A stretch of DNA of 64,000 nucleotides from a virus (Duplodnaviria > Caudoviricetes). This document shows positions 23,954 through 43,461 of the stretch, piece after piece; the first letter of the stretch is position 1, and each line of letters begins with the position of its first letter. The DNA lies in IMG/VR virus record IMGVR_UViG_3300037047_000246; one strand, given 5' to 3'. The notes beneath the pieces were generated by a model. It was not told the origin of the DNA and did not search any database. It worked only from the letters and a program-made list of their open reading frames with translations. The position numbers and the translations under genes are program-made.

Positions 23954-24396
23954 GGACGATTGTCAAGACCGAGCTTGTGCCAGCCGAGGAGGTCACTTAC
24001 ACGACGTACGGCTGCGACCTGTGCGACTTCACGTCGGACGATGAAGACAACATCAAGCTGCACCACGGCAAGGAGCATGCGTGCAAGCGCAAGATGGAAG
24101 TGGACGGTGTCGAACTGTATTGGTTCGACACGGAGGAGGATGCCCAGACCTGGATCGAGCAGGATGAGTACGGCGCCGATGAGCGCAAGGTGCGTTGGTC
24201 TGACCCCGGATGGTACACCGCCTCGTGGTCGACCGGGCCGTGCAGGCGCGGCTGCTGTACGCGAAGCTGCCGATCGCTCGAATCTGTGGGCTCCTACCTG
24301 TCTGAACTGGAGTACGCGGCCGAGCAGGCCGAACAGCAGGCTGACAAGAAGCGCCGCCTGGCTCAGGCGATTCGCCAGGAGGTTGGCGATGGCTGA
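23950..24396 (+). CDS. Hypothetical protein with C2H2-like zinc finger
   Basis: CDLCDF...HHGKEH; ATGA overlap with the previous gene. Confidence 0.7.
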   Translation: MRTIVKTELVPAEEVTYTTYGCDLCDFTSDDEDNIKLHHGKEHACKRKMEVDGVELYWFDTEEDAQTWIEQDEYGADERKVRWSDPGWYTASWSTGPCRRGCCTRSCRSLESVGSYLSELEYAAEQAEQQADKKRRLAQAIRQEVGDG

Positions 24397-24715
24397 GAAG
24401 CTCTTTCTGGTCACTCGCGCAGATCTGCGGCCGGGTCAGCAGGCGGTTCAGGCTGCCCACGCAGCACACCAGTTTTGTGTCGATTTCCCAACTGAGTTCG
24501 CGGCCTGGTTTGAACGTTCCAACACTTTGGCAATGCTCACTGTGCCCGACGAACAGGCGCTGCGGCAGTTGGCTGACCTGGCAGATGACTGGGACTTGAA
24601 GTTGTCGATGTTTCGCGAGCCTGACCTTGGCAACGCTTTGACTGCTTTGGCGCTCGAGCCAGGTTCAGGCACCAGAAGGCTGTGCCGCAATCTGCCGCTA
24701 GCTCTCGGCGGCTGA
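24389..24715 (+). CDS. Peptidyl-tRNA hydrolase, PTH2 family
   Basis: LVTRADL.PGQQAVQAAHA, FREPDLGNALTALA; AGGAGG RBS. Confidence 0.85.
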   Translation: MAEKLFLVTRADLRPGQQAVQAAHAAHQFCVDFPTEFAAWFERSNTLAMLTVPDEQALRQLADLADDWDLKLSMFREPDLGNALTALALEPGSGTRRLCRNLPLALGG

Positions 24716-25069: not shown

Positions 25070-25159
25070 GCCCTCGTAGCCCAGCGGTCGAAGGCAGGCG
25101 GCTTTAAACCGTCCACGAGCGAGAGCTCGTCACCGGGGGTTCGACTCCCTCCGAGGGCA
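25070..25159 (+). tRNA. Class II tRNA with anticodon UUA (ochre suppressor); amino acid uncertain (Tyr/Leu/Ser-like)
   Basis: Acceptor GCCCTCG/CGAGGGC with A73; D arm GCC/GGC; anticodon stem GGCGG/CCGTC with loop CT-TTA-AA; variable arm ACGAGC-GAGA-GCTCGT; T arm GGGGG-TTCGACT-CCCTC; CCA not encoded. Confidence 0.9.
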
Positions 25160-25160
25160 C

Positions 25161-25721
25161 TTACTGCGATCGTGACAGCTTGGCAGCTATTTTTTCGAGC
25201 TGAAGCTGGAAATTTTGCAAAACAAACGGCAGCGCTATGGAAACCCTGCCGTCTCCACGGTCCGCGCCGTATATTGTCAGATCGAACGCTCCCCAAGACA
25301 CTGGCGCAGGCAGCGGTCCTGCCGTTTTGGCACCAGGCATGTACGACAGCGTCACGTGCGGCTTGAACTCAGGCCATTTGGCGCTGTACGACACTCCTGA
25401 GAGGTCGAGCTCCTCTTTCAGGTCTCGCTCCAACTGCATGAGCTCAGGGGACTGCACCGGCAGGATAACTGGGGTGCCGTGGTGGCCCGGGTCGAACGAA
25501 GCCACTTCGCTGCATGTTAGCGTGAACGGCGACGTTCGGCGCGTGACCTTGTGGCAAGCCACCATTGCAGCCGCAAGCTGCTCCATCGATGCTCCGTCGC
25601 CGAGGTACACCACAGTCACGTGCATTTCAGACGCTGCTTGAACGTCGCCCGGCAGCGCGCCTGACATTTGCGCCAGAAGTCTGCCGACTTCCTGCGGGAC
25701 TCGCAGAGCTATCATGGCCAT
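25161..25721 (-). CDS. 2H phosphoesterase (LigT / Acb1-like)
   Basis: Two HxT motifs: MHVTVVY and KPHVTLSY. Confidence 0.85.
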   Translation of the reverse strand: MAMIALRVPQEVGRLLAQMSGALPGDVQAASEMHVTVVYLGDGASMEQLAAAMVACHKVTRRTSPFTLTCSEVASFDPGHHGTPVILPVQSPELMQLERDLKEELDLSGVSYSAKWPEFKPHVTLSYMPGAKTAGPLPAPVSWGAFDLTIYGADRGDGRVSIALPFVLQNFQLQLEKIAAKLSRSQ

Positions 25722-25753
25722 AAGGCCTGCAATCGACAAAACGTTTATCGAGC

Positions 25754-26650
25754 ATGCAGCGTGTGAACGATTTGTATTTGGGCCGCAACGCGCTTGGGCA
25801 CGCCGCATATGCCGGGCGCAATTTCGCTGTCGGAGACCTCGTGGCGCAGTTCTCTGGCGACATCTGCTCAGCTGAGGATCTGCCGGAAATATCGTCCCCG
25901 GAGGACGACAGGTACATGCAGGTGGGCAGAAGCGTCTACATGGGCCCTTCTGGCTGGTTCGACGATTACTGCAACCACTCGTGCGATCCGAACGCCGGCG
26001 TGGCGGACGTCGACGGGTCCATGTGGCTGATTGCCATTCGGCCGATTGAGGCCGGAGATGAAATCGTGTGGGACTACTCCACCACGATGGACGAAGACGA
26101 CTGGGAGATGGATTGCCGGTGCGGCAGCCCTGCGTGCAGAGGCCGAATCCGAGACTTCAAGCACCTGGAGCTCGGCTTGCAGCTCAAGTACGTCAGCCTA
26201 GGCATAGTGCCGGACTTTGTCCTGCAATCAGTGTCGCCTGACCTGCTGTCCTCGGCTCTCCGGTTCATGTCCGGGCAAGAGCCGGACGCGCCTTTGCTGG
26301 AGAAGCTTGCGCTGTCCATAGACGGCCCAAGCAAAAAGAAAAGCAAGGGCAAAGGGGGCAAGTCGCCTCCGACTGTGACTCTGCTCGACGTTGAAATGAC
26401 CGAGGACGGCGGCGTCAAACAGAGCTGGGGCGTGTACGCTGAGGGGCAGAAAGTTGGCGTACACTCGGTGACCGACGCCGAGGGGGACACGAAGATACTG
26501 GGCAACGATCTGGACCTTGGCGAAGGCGGATTGACCGCGCAGCAAGCAGTTGCCCACATCCTGCAGGGTGCCCATCCGAGGTACTATCCGAAGCCTGGGA
26601 AAACTGTGGTGCTGGACAGCGCATTCGTGCACAGCGCCTCTCGGAGCTGA
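25754..26650 (+). CDS. SET-domain protein-lysine methyltransferase with post-SET Cys cluster and C-terminal extension
   Basis: YCNHSCDPN, IEAGDEIVWDY, CRCGSPAC. Confidence 0.9.
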   Translation: MQRVNDLYLGRNALGHAAYAGRNFAVGDLVAQFSGDICSAEDLPEISSPEDDRYMQVGRSVYMGPSGWFDDYCNHSCDPNAGVADVDGSMWLIAIRPIEAGDEIVWDYSTTMDEDDWEMDCRCGSPACRGRIRDFKHLELGLQLKYVSLGIVPDFVLQSVSPDLLSSALRFMSGQEPDAPLLEKLALSIDGPSKKKSKGKGGKSPPTVTLLDVEMTEDGGVKQSWGVYAEGQKVGVHSVTDAEGDTKILGNDLDLGEGGLTAQQAVAHILQGAHPRYYPKPGKTVVLDSAFVHSASRS

Positions 26651-28979: not shown

Positions 28980-30824
28980 TTACTCGGTCGTCCATTCAGA
29001 AGCGTCCAGTTCGCCCACGCCAGACTCTGGGCTGCCCAGCACCAGGTCTTCCTCTTTCGCCATTCTGCATTCCTCGTCTGTGATGGACCCGCGCCGAAGC
29101 ATCAGGTCCAGGATCAGGTTGACGTGGTTGCGCTTGGCTTCATGCATTTTGCCTGATGCGCCAAAGTAGGAGGCTCTCGGCCTGGGCAGAATAGACGCCA
29201 GGAACACTGACTGGGCAAGAGACAGTCGAGAAGGGTCTGTGCCGAAGTAGTGATTGGCCGCTTGCCCGATGCCCCAGATATCTGGGCCGAACTCCACGGC
29301 GCTCAGGTACGCTTCCAGTATCCTGTCCTTGGTCATGCGCTGCTCTATCGCCATGACCAGAAAGAACTCTTGGACTTTGCGAGACGCTGTTTTGTCCCTG
29401 CTCAAGAACATGTTTTTGGCCAGCTGCATGGTGATCGTGCTGGCCCCACGAACGAACTTTCTGTCTTTGACATTATCCCGGATGGAGTTTCGCACAGCTT
29501 CCACGTCGATGCCTTTGTGGCCCCAGAATCCGGGGTCTTCTGTGGTCACCACGGCTTTCGCCATGTACGGGGAGACGTCGGCCAAAGACACTTTGGCTGG
29601 CCATCCGGCAGCGGCTGACTTGCCTGTGCGGCGGCCTGTGGAGGAGTAGATCGTGCGCGCAAAAGGTTTGCCGGACAGGGCTGCAGACACTTTGTCCGGC
29701 AGCTCCAGCACCTTGCATTTGTTGACGAGCTCGAAGAAAGCCTCAGGCGTTTTTCCGCTTTGCTCGCTCACTTTCGCCGCGCTTCGCATCTCCCCTCCCA
29801 GGCGCATGCCTACAAGCTCTTGCTTCATCGAGTCCGGCACAGCTTGCAGCACGTCTGAACACGGCGTCCAGCCCATGCTGGCTTCCAGCTTCCAGCTCTC
29901 TGCGTCTCTCGACGCCAGCATTTTCAGCGGCACCTGCCCCGCAGTCACGTCTGCCGACCACGACCAGCGGCGGGCAGACTGCACCAGCATCTCTCCGCTC
30001 ACGCAGGTCTCAGGCAGCGTCACAGAGTCTTCTGCCACGGCCCCGTGCTGGCCTGTGGCAGACTTGAACTGGGCCTGGACCGAGATTCGGGCGCCGCCTT
30101 CGCCGGGCGCCGCCGTCACCGCTGCCTGCGCGCCGGCTACGGACAGACCCCAAGGCAAGTCTGCTCTGGCCGCCGCAGCCGAGAACGACACCGAGCCGCC
30201 TTGAGACTGCACGTCCATCACCTCGAGTTCGTGCAGCCGGATGCTGTGGCCCCGGGCAAACAAAATGACTTCTGGCGACTTGGCTTCAGTCTTCCCTGAG
30301 CCTTTGATCACGCGCATGGAGTGGCTCTTTGCCTGACCCCATTTGGACTGCACGATCAGACCCTCCAGCAGCACTTCGACCGAGGTGTCCAGGTTCGCGG
30401 TCACGCAGTCCGCTTCCACCTTTGTGCCGCTGCCGTCGATATCCTCCCACAGCAGCGGCACATTCTTTATTCGAATGCGCATTGATCGGCCAGACGCCCC
30501 AGCCTCGCTCTTGGCTTTCGGCCACCGGCCGCTCATGGTGATTTTGCCGCCTTCAGCGGTCACCTGCTTCGGGGAGAGCTTGTAGTCGAGTTCGATCAAA
30601 GCGAAGCTCAGCACAACGTGCCGAGCCTTGTCTTTGGACGTCATGTCGAGACCGCTCAGCCGAACCCCGCTTCTGGTCAAGGACACCTGTTGCACGGCGG
30701 CGTCCCATCCCCTGGCCTCGAGCTCGCCAATCAGCGCTCTCTTCGCCAAGACAGGAGCGGACAGGTATGCTGCCGCCCCGAGTGCAAAGACAGACAGGGC
30801 GGCCGCTTTTGCGCGTTTTCGCAT
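28980..30824 (-). CDS. Peptidoglycan transglycosylase (GT51, MtgA-like) with N-terminal membrane anchor and beta-rich domain
   Basis: TEDPGFWGHKGID, GASTITMQLAKN, RKVQE, KDRILEAYLS.VEFG; no transpeptidase domain. Confidence 0.9.
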   Translation of the reverse strand: MRKRAKAAALSVFALGAAAYLSAPVLAKRALIGELEARGWDAAVQQVSLTRSGVRLSGLDMTSKDKARHVVLSFALIELDYKLSPKQVTAEGGKITMSGRWPKAKSEAGASGRSMRIRIKNVPLLWEDIDGSGTKVEADCVTANLDTSVEVLLEGLIVQSKWGQAKSHSMRVIKGSGKTEAKSPEVILFARGHSIRLHELEVMDVQSQGGSVSFSAAAARADLPWGLSVAGAQAAVTAAPGEGGARISVQAQFKSATGQHGAVAEDSVTLPETCVSGEMLVQSARRWSWSADVTAGQVPLKMLASRDAESWKLEASMGWTPCSDVLQAVPDSMKQELVGMRLGGEMRSAAKVSEQSGKTPEAFFELVNKCKVLELPDKVSAALSGKPFARTIYSSTGRRTGKSAAAGWPAKVSLADVSPYMAKAVVTTEDPGFWGHKGIDVEAVRNSIRDNVKDRKFVRGASTITMQLAKNMFLSRDKTASRKVQEFFLVMAIEQRMTKDRILEAYLSAVEFGPDIWGIGQAANHYFGTDPSRLSLAQSVFLASILPRPRASYFGASGKMHEAKRNHVNLILDLMLRRGSITDEECRMAKEEDLVLGSPESGVGELDASEWTTE

Positions 30825-30864
30825 CACAGATCTGACATTTGAGTTTTGATTACTTTCGTGCTGC

Positions 30865-31074
30865 ATGGCAATTAAATTCTTCAACATAGCTGCCCGCGTG
30901 GCGTGCTTGGCGCAGCCGCTGTCCGATCGTCCGGACTACGGTTCAAACACCAACCCGGCTCTGCCCCGCGGCGGCGAATGCGGATGCGGCGGGGAGTGCA
31001 AATGCGGGGGCGGAGAGTGCGAAGGCGGGTGCAAATGCTGCGCCAGCAAGACTTCGAAACCGCTGCCTACTTAA
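30865..31074 (+). CDS. Small Cys-rich, metallothionein-like peptide
   Basis: GGECGCGGECKCGGGECEGGCKCC tail; N-terminal IAARVA. Confidence 0.55.
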   Translation: MAIKFFNIAARVACLAQPLSDRPDYGSNTNPALPRGGECGCGGECKCGGGECEGGCKCCASKTSKPLPT

Positions 31075-34398: not shown

Positions 34399-36090
34399 CT
34401 ATAGCTTTTTGAACCACAACACCTTCTCTGATTCCATCACTTTAGTCAAGCCTGCAAATTTGACCAATTCTTGCTCTGTCAAACCCATGTTGCTGGCTTG
34501 GGCATATACGGTCTTCTTATGTATGGCCTTGATCGTCACTGGATCAAGATAGTGATATGATTTGTCTGTGTTGCCTAGTTTAACCCAACCAGCTGCCGCG
34601 TATATTGTGCCTGAGTGTCCTACAGTCGGGTCACTGAAACTAGTGATGGCAATGGTTTCACGTTTTTCTTTCTTGAATGCCTTAACAAACCTGTTGATCA
34701 AATTAGAGCCAGCGTTACTGGTTTTGAATGATGGGGATATACAAAATCGTTTGAGCTCTCTCAGACTCTTGTTCGTGAGTGTGGTTCCGGATAGCCTGCT
34801 TACTTTGGCACACGTGCACTGTCTGATCGGAGAACCGAATGAGCATGCCGCCACTAGTATTCCTGACTGAGTGAATGCTCCATAGTGACAGGCATTTTTG
34901 GTGAAACCTATGTAATGGTATTGGCTGAAGAATGCGCAAGCCGCGTCGGCAGATATCGAGCTGATTGTTAGACTGTTCAGGTCGTCTGTGATTGGATCCA
35001 CTGTGATGGACAGATGTCTGCTTAGGATCGCAAAGACTCTTCCAAGGTTTATTTCATGTTCCCAAATTGATATGAGCTTGTAGTTTGTGTGCCTCTGAAC
35101 ATAAGTGGCTTTGCCTCTATCTCGTGACGTTCCAACATATCCATTGTGCTTGAAATCATGCCAAAAGTCCCCCTGACATTCTACAAGTAAATTCGCTTTG
35201 GGAATATAGAAATCGAACGAATATGGGCCCACTTCATACTGGCGTTCATATTTCGTTCCGATTCTTTCTAATGTTGATTTGACCAGTCGCTCTGTCAGTG
35301 GATCAGATAATTTGGCTTTCACTGCCGGAATGTTTACGATTGATGATACGCCATACTTTGTCCGTATCGTGTTTTTTAGTTTTATGCTTTCACATTTTTT
35401 ACATGTTACCTGTCCAGCTTGACTAACGAAATATGCTATCGTTGTTGGTTTGCGAGTCGAGCAGTGTGGACAGATATGGATTATCTTTTTGCTTGAGTGA
35501 AGAGTTAACGTTGCGGGATCGTATCCGAATTTGATCTTGGTAGCTTCTGTGTCGATCAGATGGACTAACCCACAGATCATATTTCGGTTTTTGGCGCCGT
35601 AATCTGACGCAAAGGATTTTTTGTTCACATCCGATTTTGTTGTCGCATGCAGCGAGGCAAGTCCGATGCAGTCTTGGCATGCGGCTGACTTACGCTTACT
35701 GAGCGTGTTTAAGCATGACTCATACCTTTCGTCGCAAAATTCACATATTGCAACTACTCTTTTAGCAGAGAACGGGCCTAATGAATTCGGCAGGTATCCG
35801 AATTTAGTTAGTGTTGCCTCTGAATCTATTAATTCGCTTTTGGCACGTGAGCTAGTGACCTTCAGAAAAAACTCGTGCCTATCTTCATCGGTGTTTTTCA
35901 TAGAGTACGAAGTAGATATCGAGTTGCATTTCTTGCAAGCTATTGGCACTCTCCTACGTTGCGTAGCGAATCTGTTCATGCAAAATTGGCAGACCGCAAT
36001 TACCTTTCTGTGAGATGACTGACTAAGACTGCTCGGCAAATAGCCGAACTGCAGTAACGTTGATTCAGAGTCAATCACTGAGGTTAGCAT
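34399..36090 (-). CDS. Zn-ribbon repeats + Vsr/DUF559-like nuclease + Mom-like GNAT domain
   Basis: Three ID.E.T...FGY.P..L...S.K..I..C..C repeats; FDFYIP...LLVECQGDFWH; FFSQYHYIG..ELKRFC..SFSDPTVGHSGTIYAAAGW. Markedly AT-rich and antisense to flanks. Confidence 0.8.
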   Translation of the reverse strand: MLTSVIDSESTLLQFGYLPSSLSQSSHRKVIAVCQFCMNRFATQRRRVPIACKKCNSISTSYSMKNTDEDRHEFFLKVTSSRAKSELIDSEATLTKFGYLPNSLGPFSAKRVVAICEFCDERYESCLNTLSKRKSAACQDCIGLASLHATTKSDVNKKSFASDYGAKNRNMICGLVHLIDTEATKIKFGYDPATLTLHSSKKIIHICPHCSTRKPTTIAYFVSQAGQVTCKKCESIKLKNTIRTKYGVSSIVNIPAVKAKLSDPLTERLVKSTLERIGTKYERQYEVGPYSFDFYIPKANLLVECQGDFWHDFKHNGYVGTSRDRGKATYVQRHTNYKLISIWEHEINLGRVFAILSRHLSITVDPITDDLNSLTISSISADAACAFFSQYHYIGFTKNACHYGAFTQSGILVAACSFGSPIRQCTCAKVSRLSGTTLTNKSLRELKRFCISPSFKTSNAGSNLINRFVKAFKKEKRETIAITSFSDPTVGHSGTIYAAAGWVKLGNTDKSYHYLDPVTIKAIHKKTVYAQASNMGLTEQELVKFAGLTKVMESEKVLWFKKL

Positions 36091-39773: not shown

Positions 39774-40583
39774 ATGCGCGTTGGAATCGTTCGCTCGGAC
39801 ATCAGCAAGATTTTTCTAAACGACGTGGAGAGCCGATCCCAGCGCTGCTTCTCGATGGAGCCGCCCGGCCAGACCAGGTACCTGCACAAGCCCAGCTCGG
39901 TGGAGCTCCTTGCGGTGCTCAATCAGCATGCGTGCTTGACTTTTCAGGGCGCGGACCAGAACGCGGCAGTCGCAACCAACGGCCTGGACGGCGACAAGCT
40001 CAACATCCGCACCAGCCCGACTGCCAACTTCGTTCAGGTGACTGTGACGGCCGGCGCAGCAGTGACCAAGGTCCAGATTGCGGCTGAGCTCAACGCGGCT
40101 TTCCGCGCGGCCGGGCTTCCGCTCGTCGCTCGCATTTCGGGCTTGAACCAGCTGACGATCGACACCACGACCAAGGGTCCCGGCGCGTACGTCGAAATCA
40201 GCGCAGTGCTGCCTGCTGCTGGCGCTTTGCACGTCGTGCTCGGTCTGGCCGCGGCGTCTGCCACCGGCCTGTCCGTTGCGGCCTTGCAGGCAGTGACTTA
40301 CCCGACTCCCGTCACTGTGGACGTGTCGATTCTTTCGCTCACTGCGCTTAGCACTTTCGCGCTCATGGCGCTTCCGGCCCAGCTTGCTATGTACGAAGCC
40401 ATTGCTGACGTCGTTGCGCCCAGGTTTGTGGAAACCGGCATGGCGCTGCTGTCGTTCGCATACGGCAACCTGTCCAAGATGCGCTCTGCCTCGTTCCAGC
40501 CTGGCGGCGCCCACGGCGGACTGCCAGCCGGTATCTGCGCAGCCATTGTGGACGACGACGGCGTCACTCCTATGGTTGTTTAG
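39774..40583 (+). CDS. Hypothetical virion structural protein
   Basis: Ala/Val-rich, biased codons. Confidence 0.7.
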   Translation: MRVGIVRSDISKIFLNDVESRSQRCFSMEPPGQTRYLHKPSSVELLAVLNQHACLTFQGADQNAAVATNGLDGDKLNIRTSPTANFVQVTVTAGAAVTKVQIAAELNAAFRAAGLPLVARISGLNQLTIDTTTKGPGAYVEISAVLPAAGALHVVLGLAAASATGLSVAALQAVTYPTPVTVDVSILSLTALSTFALMALPAQLAMYEAIADVVAPRFVETGMALLSFAYGNLSKMRSASFQPGGAHGGLPAGICAAIVDDDGVTPMVV

Positions 40584-40616
40584 TTCCGCGAAGATTGTTA
40601 CTGGTAGAGTTCGTTC

Positions 40617-40652
40617 ATGAGCTCTGCTAAAACTATCCGCTTCATCATCTGA
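40617..40652 (+). CDS. Possible leaderless uORF MSSAKTIRFII (UGA stop) upstream of the release factor
   Basis: TGgTAGAGT extended -10 ends 6 nt before the ATG. Read-through would stop at TGA 40692-40694, overlapping the RF start ATG. Confidence 0.35.
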   Translation: MSSAKTIRFII

Positions 40653-40690
40653 CATAAGCTCGTGCTGAGCTTCCAATGTAATTTCCTTGC

Positions 40691-41351
40691 ATGATCATCG
40701 AAATACGCGCAGCAGAAGGTGGACAGGACGCCAAACTTCTCGTGCTGGAACAGCTGAGCGTGTACGCAAAGCGCGCCGCTCGCCACTGTCTTTGACCTCG
40801 AAATCTTGGACCAGCGCCCAGGGTCGGTGACCCTGCGGTCCACAAGCCCCAAAGCAGAAGAGTTTTTCCGGAACGAATCAGGAGGTATGCGCTGGCAGCG
40901 GGTGCCGCCCACCGAGAAGCGCGGGCGTGTGCAGACCAGCACAGTTACTGTGGCAGTCTTGCCGGAGCCCGATTTCGAGCAGATGCGCATCAGAGACAGC
41001 GACCTGTCTTTTCGCACCTGCAGAGGGTCCGGGCCTGGCGGACAGAATCGCAACAAGCTCGAGACTGCTGTGCAGGTCACGCATGTGCCGACTGGGCTCT
41101 GCGTCCGGTGCGAGACTGAGCGGTCGCAGCTGCAAAACAAGCAGGGAGCGTTGGCGCTGCTCCGAGCTCGGTTGTGGCAAATTCAGCTGCAGGGGCGCAT
41201 CGACGCGCGTGCTGCTGACCGGAGGCAGCAGATAGGTTCCGGAGAGCGCGGAGACAAGCGCCGGACCATAGCTTTGCAGCGAGACCAAGTTGTCGATCAC
41301 GTGACTGGCCAGACCTGGAAAGCGAAAGCGTATTTGCGAGGTGAGTGGTAA
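40691..41351 (+). CDS. Class I peptide release factor, RF1-like (PxT, GGQ), lacking domain 1; split by a +1 frameshift at CTT-TGA-C (40790-40796)
   Basis: 0 frame MIIEIRAAEGGQDAK...ARHCL*; +1 frame DLEILDQ...ESGGMRWQRVPPTEKRGRVQTSTVTVAVLPE...GSGPGGQNRNK...SQLQNK. Confidence 0.85.
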
Positions 41352-41400
41352 TGCCTTTATGGGACCATTCCAGCATGAGCTGGGGGTGTGGAATCCTCGG

Positions 41401-43146
41401 CTAAGGGTTCCACACCCAGCGCTTCTTTCCCAAATCCCAGATTTTGCTGTAGCCCTGGCTTTCGCGCAGTTCAGTTTCGGTGTGCGTGCTTTCGCGTTCT
41501 TGTCCGCGTTTGCGCAACCCCGATTTGTTGTACCTTTTGCCAGCTTTTGTCCAGTAATAGCTTTGCGGCACGCAACCGTCGTTTTTGAACCCTAGCCGGT
41601 CGTACACTCGTCCGGTAAACAGCCTGTTGTCAGAGAACGAGACTATGGACGCCGGACGAGCGTCCGCCACAAACCGGCGCAGCAGTCTCGACCACACTCC
41701 ATGGACTTTGTAGTCAGGGTCCGATGCCATTCGAATGAGTTCCCACGGGTGAGCTGACTGCCTAGTCGGTTTTGCAAACGAGCAGCAAGCAACCATTTTC
41801 CCGTTTGCAAAGGCTCCGTAGCTGGCGGCAGACCTACATCGGCCAAGATAGTGGAAAGACTCGTAGAACGCATTGGCGCTGGAGTTGGGTACTCGCTCTA
41901 TCTTTGCTTCGGAAGCTCTCCACGCGTGCGCCGGACGGCTCTTCATCAGCCTATTTCGGACGATTTGCTTGATTTGCTGCTGGCGCAGCAGCCATTCGTC
42001 TTCGTACACTGCCATTACGCCGAGCCCGCGTTGCACGGCGTTCTGGTACTTGGTCCAATCGCGCTGTTTGGATCCAGGAAGGGAATGCCACTTCGTGCCC
42101 TGGAACTCCAGCACGATTGCATGCGTCTCGACGAACATGTCGTACGACAGCTTTCCTATTTTATGCTCCAGACGCACGTCCAATCCCAAGCTTCGCACGA
42201 ATTCGGCCAGTTCTAGTTGGCCGCTGGACGTGCGATTGGTGCTACATCCGCATGTCAGCGCTGCACCTGCTCTTATGTGGTCCCAGCGAGGCGCATACTC
42301 TTTGCCGCACGCGCCGCATAAAGCCAAAACAGGACTGGACGTTCGCGTAACTTTGTCCAGGATGGCGAAAGGGCCCGCCGGCAAGTCGCTTGGGCTGATC
42401 GGGGGCTTCATGGCCCGAAGTTGTTCCCTGTGTTTGGCGAACCAGCTGTCCACGCCGCTTCGGCATTTGCCGCAACACACTGTGCGACCTCGCGTCACAT
42501 TTTGCACGACAGCCTGAAAGACGCCTCCGCAATCGCACTGCCACTCCAGTTTTTTGTTCGATCGCAACGCCAGCTCCGTTGCAAAACGCAGTCGCAATCG
42601 TCCAAACTTTGTGTTTGCCCAAAACTCGGCAGGCATCGTGTTGCATTTGCCGCACGAAGTGCGGTGGCCTCGCGTCACCTCAACCATGGTCGCCTGCGTG
42701 TCTTTGCCGCAGTCGCACACCCACCAAACGCGTTTGCTGGACGCCCGAAGCACGCTCTCCGGGAATTTCATTCGGAGCTTGCCGAATTTGGACTGCTCCA
42801 TGGTGCTGGAGTCCACTTCGTTGCATCTGCCGCAAGACTTGGCGCGTCCGTTGGCTACCCGAACGATGGGAAGCATGGCGGTTTTGCCGCAGTCGCACAG
42901 CCATTCGACCACCTTGTTGGATCCATTCTTGTGGTCCTGAGGGTGCGCCATGGATAGGTGGCCGTATCGGGTAGTCTCCCAATGCGACTGCGGCAGCAGG
43001 TTGCACTGGCCGCACGACTTGATTTTTCCATTGAACACGCTTGACCACGGACGTAGTACGCCTTTGCGTCCGCAAGAGCAGTCGTACCTGGTGAGCTGCC
43101 CTGACCATCTGGTCTTTACGGTTTCGCCTGCAGACAGCGTTAGCAT
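41401..43146 (-). CDS. FG.L...W.CDCG zinc-finger repeats + PD-(D/E)xK nuclease + Mom-like GNAT domain
   Basis: Four CDCG/CSCG repeats; YDMFV...VLEFQGTKWH; FYESFHYLG..WELIRMAS..SFSDNRLFTGRVYDRLGF. Confidence 0.8.
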   Translation of the reverse strand: MLTLSAGETVKTRWSGQLTRYDCSCGRKGVLRPWSSVFNGKIKSCGQCNLLPQSHWETTRYGHLSMAHPQDHKNGSNKVVEWLCDCGKTAMLPIVRVANGRAKSCGRCNEVDSSTMEQSKFGKLRMKFPESVLRASSKRVWWVCDCGKDTQATMVEVTRGHRTSCGKCNTMPAEFWANTKFGRLRLRFATELALRSNKKLEWQCDCGGVFQAVVQNVTRGRTVCCGKCRSGVDSWFAKHREQLRAMKPPISPSDLPAGPFAILDKVTRTSSPVLALCGACGKEYAPRWDHIRAGAALTCGCSTNRTSSGQLELAEFVRSLGLDVRLEHKIGKLSYDMFVETHAIVLEFQGTKWHSLPGSKQRDWTKYQNAVQRGLGVMAVYEDEWLLRQQQIKQIVRNRLMKSRPAHAWRASEAKIERVPNSSANAFYESFHYLGRCRSAASYGAFANGKMVACCSFAKPTRQSAHPWELIRMASDPDYKVHGVWSRLLRRFVADARPASIVSFSDNRLFTGRVYDRLGFKNDGCVPQSYYWTKAGKRYNKSGLRKRGQERESTHTETELRESQGYSKIWDLGKKRWVWNP

Positions 43147-43218
43147 GCTCGATCTTTGGTAGTGTTTTCTTGCAGCCACGTCCGGGAAACAAAGAGCTGA
43201 GGCATACGCGGAAAATAC

Positions 43219-43461
43219 ATGAACACTAATACAGAAAACGAGTTTGAGACGCACGACATTTACCTGGCTGCCTTTCTGGCTGTGTCGTCATGCACCCTGC
43301 TGCGCCGGCGCAAGCAAGCCAACCGCGTCTACTTCATCTTCACCAACCCTGCCGGTCCAGTCCAAGACCTCCGGGAAGCCTTCTTTTCGGGGCAAGCTAA
43401 AGTGTCCGCTCATGAGTACGCACAGCGCATCGTGGCGTTTAAGCAGTTGTGTTACGAGTGA
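43219..43461 (+). CDS. DUF5659-like small protein
   Basis: FETHDIYLAAFL...RVYFIF pattern. Confidence 0.7.
   Translation: MNTNTENEFETHDIYLAAFLAVSSCTLLRRRKQANRVYFIFTNPAGPVQDLREAFFSGQAKVSAHEYAQRIVAFKQLCYE

Follow-up and report, generated by a model that had tools for sequence, protein, structure and literature searches.

A prfB-like +1 frameshift signal in the gene for a predicted short RF1-type release factor of huge phages and Myxococcota

The prfB frameshift is the textbook example of a gene that measures the ribosomal activity of its own product, and it has long been treated as a device of RF2 only. Craigen and Caskey are said to have described this autoregulatory +1 frameshift in 1986, and the prfB cassette was reportedly defined by Baranov et al. 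in 2002 as an SD sequence, a 3-nt spacer and CUU-UGA-C. Both the mechanism of the prfB gate and its dependence on RF2 are established (PMC12421855). In their survey of more than 12,000 genomes, Prince et al. 2025 (PMC12421855) saw no prfA with a programmed frameshift and concluded that RF1 lacks this kind of control; among 8,164 prfB gates not one was TAG, and they inferred that the prfB gate is ancestral and has been lost repeatedly. The sole release factor listed in the GeneTack survey is prfB, Burroughs and Aravind 2019 make no mention of phages or frameshifting, and Borges et al. (bioRxiv 10.1101/2021.08.26.457843) report phage RF1 and RF2 and do not mention a frameshift. Our literature search found no paper describing a frameshift-gated short factor of RF1 type.

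The locus analyzed here lies in a 64,000-nt stretch of phage DNA (the window), which is the minus strand of 137348-201347 in a complete 362,524-bp IMG/VR phage record with direct terminal repeats. The prfB cassette is now found at another codon of another, truncated release-factor paralogue, with hundreds of examples in Myxococcota and in huge phages. Our best overall explanation, to which we give slightly better than even credence on the strength of sequence comparisons, is that the gene encodes an RF1-type factor made of domains 2-4, gated by a +1 shift that would sense RF2, with a gate that is ancestral and has been lost in some lineages.

The shift site and its conservation

The short-factor ORF starts at ATG 40691, three codons past an in-frame TAA (40679-40681), so it cannot extend further upstream. 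The +1 frame is open from GAC at 40794 to TAA at 41349-41351, and joining the two frames at CTT gives a product of 219 aa (P0003; Table 1). A first-pass annotation made from the letters alone had read the two parts as one colinear protein joined at CTT-TGA-C, and this join is borne out by RF1 models, by Pfam and by a PDB alignment that is gap-free across the junction. It had also reported that the internal SD is missing from this copy, and the 9 nt 5′ of CTT (40781-40789, CGCCACTGT) indeed hold no SD-like motif. RNA structure near or downstream of the site, a possible substitute for the SD, was not significant (z = -0.04 and +1.04), and consensus scans of 40400-41600 gave nothing promoter-like and a single weak match to a terminator, no better than chance. 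The public record for the window gene (P0004, 40905-41351) is a 149-aa fragment that starts at the Val before PPT.

Table 1. Positions of the short-factor gene parts and of other features mentioned in the text (window coordinates)
Feature	Coordinates	Strand	Basis or remark
Frame-0 segment, codons 1-34 (M1-L34), start of RF domain 2	40691..40792	+	ORF, Pfam
AEGGQDA helix-tip motif, inside the frame-0 segment	40712-40732	+	
Upstream position of the relatives' SD-like stimulator (CGG AGG xxT)	40781..40789	+	here CGC CAC TGT, without SD
Shift heptamer CTT TGA C: P-site Leu codon, frame-0 stop, next base	40790..40796	+	CTT 40790-40792; TGA 40793-40795; C 40796
+1-frame segment, codons 35-219 (D35-W219) and TAA stop: rest of domain 2, domain 3 (GGQ), domain 4	40794..41351	+	
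PPT, residues 72-74, inside WQRVPPTEKRGRVQTS	40905..40913	+	RF1-type codon-recognition loop
GGQ, residues 116-118	41037..41045	+	catalytic peptidyl-tRNA hydrolysis motif
Predicted junction peptide of the joined product			...HCL-DLEILDQRPGSVTLR
Type-II tRNA, anticodon UUA (ochre suppressor)	25070-25160	+	
PTH2-like ORF and 2H/LigT-like ORF (with two HxT/S motifs), flanking the suppressor tRNA	24389-24715; 25161-25808	+; -	
Paralogous large proteins with DUF4379 zinc fingers	34399-36090; 41401-43254	-; -	
34-nt element just past the release-factor gene	41410-41443		
635-aa protein with transglycosylase domain	28980-30887	-	

An extra T in a run of Ts is a common type of error, and the first-pass annotation had warned that a sequencing error or an inactivating mutation of this kind would look identical to a shift site. 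Although modest evidence alone, since the source sample may be among the DNA runs, rare variants do not show in contigs and DNA can be present in RNA libraries, Logan contigs from two DNA studies (groundwater at 39x and coal at 22x word depth) span 40300-41700 with 0 differences and 0 gaps, and a contig from a metatranscriptomic library spans 40300-40864, including the shift site, unchanged and unedited. The closest relative found is 82 % identical, is present in two further assemblies (an NCBI MAG and an ENA assembly) and carries the identical SD-less gate, CGC-CAC-TGT-CTT-TGA-C, within a 24-nt unchanged block. Compared with this relative, the frame-0 part has 12 synonymous and 2 non-synonymous codon differences and the +1 part has 63 and 31, so each part is under purifying selection in its own frame. 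The continuous form CTTGAC was looked for in the contigs and the closest homologues, and all of them keep CTTTGAC. With three assemblies in agreement, most relatives gated and both frames under purifying selection, the gate is no artefact of sequencing or assembly and the observation is confirmed; the probability that the locus reflects an error or a recent pseudogene is negligible.

Relatives were collected by a scan of viral contigs (at least 511) and a one-genome-per-species scan of prokaryotes (153), and the best 80 of each were examined, those from prokaryotes being almost all from Myxococcota and including the complete chromosomes of Minicystis rosea and Archangium gephyra. A +1 shift is needed in 145 of the 161 loci from huge phages and Myxococcota chromosomes (about 90 %, the window included). 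The shift codon is CTT in every one of these 145, the gate stop is TGA in 105 (72 %), TAG in 35 (24 %) and TAA in 5 (3 %), and the next base is C in 114, the same weak context as TGA-C in the window. GGAGG stands exactly 3 nt 5′ of CTT in 85 gated loci and some G-rich upstream motif in 115, and the 30 that have none (21 %), among them the window, show many different sequence forms. Absence of the SD, listed as a caveat in the first-pass annotation, is a minority state of gated relatives and no ground for doubting the shift, and the basal shift rate of the window copy is probably lower than that of its relatives because it lacks the SD-like stimulator common in them. The other 16 loci comprise 4 contiguous genes, 3 with an in-frame stop at the residue-35 column and 9 that our regular expressions did not parse and that are counted as unclassified (L033, L040, L053, L054, L086, L104, L148, L152 and L161), several of which show the +1-frame hallmark GGVF. 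The four contiguous relatives align through the junction without an indel, as predicted by a one-base forward shift.

The bare CTTTGAC heptamer occurs 83 times in the phage genome, so the heptamer alone is uninformative, and the weight lies in its exact position, its conservation across the 161 loci and the codon bias around it. CTT is used in 140 of 140 sequences at the site, whereas it makes up 9.0 % of the Leu codons in the rest of these genes; AGG is found at codon -2 in 87 of 140 (6.7 % of Arg codons elsewhere), and CGG at codon -3 in 101 of 140 (19 % elsewhere). That such rare codons dominate the site argues that selection acts there on the RNA besides the protein.

The two frames could also be read as a split gene, in which translation of the C-terminal protein starts independently of the 34-residue peptide and the GGAGG of the relatives is a plain ribosome-binding site. 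Ribosomes do bind well to GGAGG, and the window has a TTG 4 codons past the shift site, but over the 145 gated relatives the first +1-frame start codon lies anywhere from 1 to 92 codons past the site and none is conserved, so separate initiation fails to explain the arrangement. In addition, the +1 frame has no start codon suitably spaced from GGAGG, GGAGG itself is missing from the window, the invariant CTT and stop would not be needed for initiation, and the C-terminal product alone would lack the conserved helix-tip motif. We therefore regard a split gene as very improbable. The prfB-like programmed +1 frameshift that the first-pass annotation had proposed is, judging from these comparisons, very likely real in the window gene.

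Product class and history of the family

Residues 2-209 of the joined product align colinearly with positions 107-320 of the 347-position RF1 model at 198.8 bits, and the scores for RF2, PrfH and ArfB models are 128.7, 95.1 and 39.7 bits. Only this range of the RF1 model is covered, the full four-domain architecture is not present, and the score falls below the RF1 equivalog cut-offs (198.8 versus 400 bits for TIGR00019, 191 versus 423 for NF001859). Pfam places PCRF at 2-87 and RF-1 at 98-203, and PCRF scores 53.7 bits in the joined product compared with 31.4 and 16.3 in the separate pieces. PDB matches of the joined product are bacterial RF1 chains at 134-155 bits, RF2 at about 95 and PrfH at 56-68. 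The alignment to Thermotoga RF1 is gap-free at the junction and its last aligned residue is 301 of 342, which, together with the RF1 model range, means that domain 1, the N-terminal part that interacts with RF3, and the last ~30-40 residues are absent. The missing domain 1, the RF1-type PPT loop and the intact GGQ noted in the first pass are thus all found in the joined product.

The product cannot be placed in the other classes. It carries PPT and not the SPF of RF2 (prfB; TIGR00020), and it lies on the RF1 side of the tree. Its 95.1 bits to PrfH (TIGR03072) compare with a cut-off of 166.65, and no RtcB is found among the neighbors; its match to ArfB (NF006718, cut-off 100) involves residues 96-130 alone, and PCRF is present. 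No second RF-domain gene or other RF1-like piece was found in the phage genome. A single clade (SH-aLRT 99) takes in all 147 distinct short factors and leaves RF1, RF2 and PrfH outside; it lies on the RF1 side of the RF1/RF2 split, in a tree where the attachment of PrfH is a long branch without support.

GGQ is kept in all 147 short factors and Gln69 in 145, Ser83 and Thr84 are near-invariant, the helix-tip E-G-G-x-D is conserved, and E4, R6, A7, E9, G10, G11 and D13 of the frame-0 part are at least 95 % conserved. The tripeptide is PPT in 82, PPN in 38, PPS in 6, PPG in 5 and another form in 16, its third residue being T in about 60 % and N in about 29 %, and residue 81, after the tripeptide, is His in 94 and Gln in 53, with Gln in the window copy. 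In the RF1 structure of Laurberg et al. (2008), the Thr of the tripeptide reportedly recognizes base 2 of the stop codon, and Gln and Thr recognize base 3. We classify the gene from these alignments as that of a predicted supernumerary class-I release factor of RF1 type with domains 2-4 only. Given the loose tripeptide and the Gln at residue 81 of the window copy, the factor may not keep strictly to the specificity of RF1.

A protein search with the joined product returned 57 contiguous proteins among the best 120 matches, a ranking in which a full-length query favors contiguous proteins; a query with the C-terminal +1 part corrects this, and among 31 family members (50 %-identity representatives) it gave 26 fragments versus 2-5 contiguous proteins. 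GGVF, the +1-frame translation of the cassette, stands at the start of many of the 26 fragments. Ungated copies are scattered on the joint tree, with ~33 state changes and a largest pure ungated clade of 7 members, so some lineages manage without the gate. The gate is probably ancestral to the family common to Myxococcota and their huge phages and was lost repeatedly, because a loss takes one deleted base whereas a gain takes a set of coordinated changes at the same codon. On the tree, copies from phages are intermingled with those from cells, with ~19 label changes (at least 5 forced), a count that mis-binned contigs could inflate, and this pattern suggests repeated exchange of the short factor between phages and cells.

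Cellular copies have a host-like GC3 of 0.80-0.94. All 30 myxobacterial genomes tested have prfB, and 29 of the 30 have a weaker second match that we read as prfA. No recurring neighbor gene and no rtcB were found at four myxobacterial loci. Minicystis rosea (L174) has five RF-domain genes, namely RF1, a frameshifted RF2, a PrfH-like gene, a small fifth RF-domain match and the short factor. Its PrfH-like gene is directly downstream of an ORF that we take, from its motif, to be RtcB-like.

The three relatives without a frameshift that have an in-frame stop at the residue-35 column (L036, CTC TGA CTG; L077, CTA TGA CTG; L083, TAT TAG ATG) would require read-through. The genome of L083 has a CUA suppressor, which matches its own TAG, and that of L077 has a UUA suppressor, which does not match its own TGA. 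At another locus (L007; 2992-3099, 3139-3212), the first ~35 short-factor codons alone remain and end at TCC-TGA, with a tRNA-Lys gene 40 nt downstream among closely packed tRNA genes; this copy appears to be either a leftover or a gene that was broken when a tRNA inserted. Public records list many relatives under the name 'peptide chain release factor 1', as fragments of 170-215 aa.

Gate stop identity and phage context

Once the 34 codons had been translated, peptidyl-tRNA-Leu would sit on CUU with UGA-C in the A site. Fast release at UGA would free the 34-residue peptide and yield no factor, and slow release would let the tRNA re-pair on UUU, with GAC (Asp35) read next, so that the full-length 219-aa factor would be made solely via the programmed +1 frameshift. 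Output of the factor would rise as RF2, and with it the UGA termination capacity of the infected cell, falls. The RF1-type residues (Gln69, PPT and Ser83-Thr84) would direct its action to UAA and UAG, which end ~41 % of the phage genes (stops are TGA in 59 %, TAG in 24 % and TAA in 17 %), and a UGA gate with action at UAA and UAG would amount to cross-regulation and not autoregulation.

Since the gate is UGA and the decoding residues are of RF1 type, the window gate would, by analogy with prfB, sense RF2, and RF2 cross-regulation is plausible for this copy, whose gate stop is not one that an RF1-type factor is specific for. We rate RF2 sensing combined with RF1-type action in the window copy as an even call. 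The gate stop switches among TGA, TAG and TAA ~38 times on the tree without a change of decoding residues, which indicates that an RF2-directed design is not a rule of the family. None of the decoding residues of the 147 short factors covaries with the gate stop, and the columns that track it are residue 35, forced by the overlapping codon, and Q148 in domain 3, probably phylogenetic. The cross-regulation that had been suggested in place of autoregulation therefore stands, by inference, for the window copy and does not extend to the family, where the gate stop varies.

The same myxobacterial genomes offer a new comparison, as the prfB gate is fixed at TGA in 26 of 26 whereas the short-factor gate is TGA in 14 and TAG in 12. 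A dependence of the gate stop on host prfB status, with TAG where prfB is ungated, was rejected because all 26 classifiable prfB genes are frameshifted at CTT-TGA-C. TAA is rare as a gate, which fits selection for any weakly read stop because both host factors read TAA. The gate may respond to termination capacity in general, or the factor may recognize a wider set of codons than RF1 does. Whether the phage suppressor tRNA avoids or matches the gate stop was looked at in seven pairs of suppressor anticodon and gate, against a background of ~80 % TGA gates: UUA/TGA in the window, three CUA/TGA, one UUA/TAA, and CUA/TAG and UUA/TGA in the in-frame variants.

A short factor with relaxed or omnipotent recognition could instead read its own gate stop, UGA included, and so limit its own synthesis. 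The ~38 switches among three codons without covariation of decoding residues would fit such autoregulation, as would the variable third residue of the tripeptide (T, N, S or G), the frequent Gln in place of the next His, unlike canonical RF1, and the TGA and TAG short-factor gates of the 26 genomes whose prfB gate is always TGA. However, the window copy carries the canonical RF1-type determinants PPT, Gln69 and Thr84, RF1-type pockets reject G at the second stop position, as structural work has established, and TAA, a stop that any such factor would read too, is rare as a gate (5 of 145), as expected under selection for a weakly read stop. On balance, we consider this reading somewhat unlikely.

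The gate may also be a fixed attenuator rather than a sensor, keeping production of a factor that could be toxic at a low and fairly steady level, and here the loss of the SD-like motif in 30 of 145 copies, the window included, the many origins of ungated copies and the reduced fitness caused by over-produced release factors (PMC12421855) would be accounted for. Against this, a stop in a poor context (C next in 114 of 145) has been kept instead of a slow sense codon, and a shift in competition with release is bound to follow the activity of release factors, as has been shown for prfB. Because any competing shift responds to release, the attenuator differs from the sensor in emphasis and not in mechanism, and as a separate explanation we find it distinctly unlikely.

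With the gate read as a sensor, a possible and more tentative extension is that the short factor serves cells and huge phages as an RF3-independent, supernumerary back-up under termination stress, of a kind so far undescribed and made only when ordinary termination fails. Its relaxed loop could widen the codons that it reads or let it act on ribosomes short of canonical factors, or on those where such factors are trapped or lose out to a competitor such as the phage UAA suppressor tRNA.

The genetic code of the phage is the standard one (table 11 gives 92 % coding in crude gene calls), and it has four tRNAs, one of which is a UAA-reading suppressor, a type-II tRNA with anticodon UUA that lies between the PTH2-like and 2H/LigT-like ORFs. 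A PTH2-like gene is present in 13 of 50 RF-carrying phage records, and a CUA or UUA suppressor tRNA is found in the same 3-kb locus in six. A BLAST search with the suppressor tRNA against 50 phage records gave generic T-arm matches alone, and a viral-contig scan with the PTH2-like protein gave no match. In 38 of 80 phage loci, the short-factor gene is at most 1.5 kb from tRNA genes, often inside arrays of 5-11 tRNAs (L012, L015, L019, L021, L034, L052, L068 and L078 are among the tRNA-adjacent loci), and this proximity points to a translation-gene island in the relatives. The neighbors of the window gene are unrelated, and it has no tRNA island.

Two paralogous large proteins of the window have repeated treble-clef zinc fingers (DUF4379), an MTES_1575/DUF559-type nuclease-like domain and a Mom-like or GNAT C-terminal domain; from their domains they may be DNA-modification enzymes, and one of them is convergent with the release-factor gene. 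Just past that gene, a stretch of 34 nt matches deeper-covered contigs in three runs, with 3 differences, and is a short repeated element common to other DNA in those samples. Elsewhere, a protein of 635 aa ends in a transglycosylase domain (PF00912, 170 bits), an unusual feature in a phage.

Relation to known release factors

The family amounts to a natural experiment on what the prfB cassette needs, with CUU and a stop invariant, the SD-like motif helpful and dispensable, and the identity of the stop free. It also adds a new family of release factors that lack domain 1 and can be tested directly for specificity and RF3 dependence, and a concrete means by which huge phages may adjust termination in the cells they infect. 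For annotation, it means that public gene calls split short-factor genes into fragments.

Like the RF1 and RF2 of recoded phages (Borges et al.), the window gene is a release factor in a large phage with a suppressor tRNA, but its phage uses the standard code and the factor is truncated and frameshift-gated. With ArfB (YaeJ)/ICT1 it shares the GGQ domain (40 bits to the ArfB model, residues 96-130); ArfB has no codon-recognition domains and places a C-terminal tail in the empty mRNA channel, whereas the short factor keeps domains 2 and 4 and lacks the tail. PrfH (PMC1586002, PMC9304027, PMC12829566) is closer, being of similar size, without domain 1, with GGQ and supernumerary, and both retain a version of the codon-recognition domain. 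However, PrfH is coupled to RtcB, and no rtcB adjoins the short factor in the phage or in the four myxobacterial loci; PrfH has no RF1-type stop-recognition motifs and no known frameshift gate, and a separate PrfH-like gene coexists with the short factor in Minicystis.

From RF1 (prfA), the short factor keeps the helix-tip GGxDA, Gln-Arg-Val-Pro-x-Thr, the Ser-Thr after the loop and GGQ, but it lacks the N-terminal ~105 residues and the last ~30-40, forms its own clade and, in cells, is additional to the canonical prfA that we read in 29 of 30 genomes. The gate is set differently from that of prfB, as it lies in an RF1-type paralogue (PPT versus SPF), at codon 34, which corresponds to about position 140 of RF1 in domain 2 and not to ~25 codons into domain 1, and its stop is variable where prfB has TGA throughout in the same genomes. 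What the short-factor gate has in common with the prfB cassette is CUU, a frame-0 stop in a weak context (C), the +1 direction, a release-factor gene as its carrier and, in most members, a GGAGG-like motif 3 nt upstream that is absent from the window copy, together with a likely history of ancestral presence and repeated loss.
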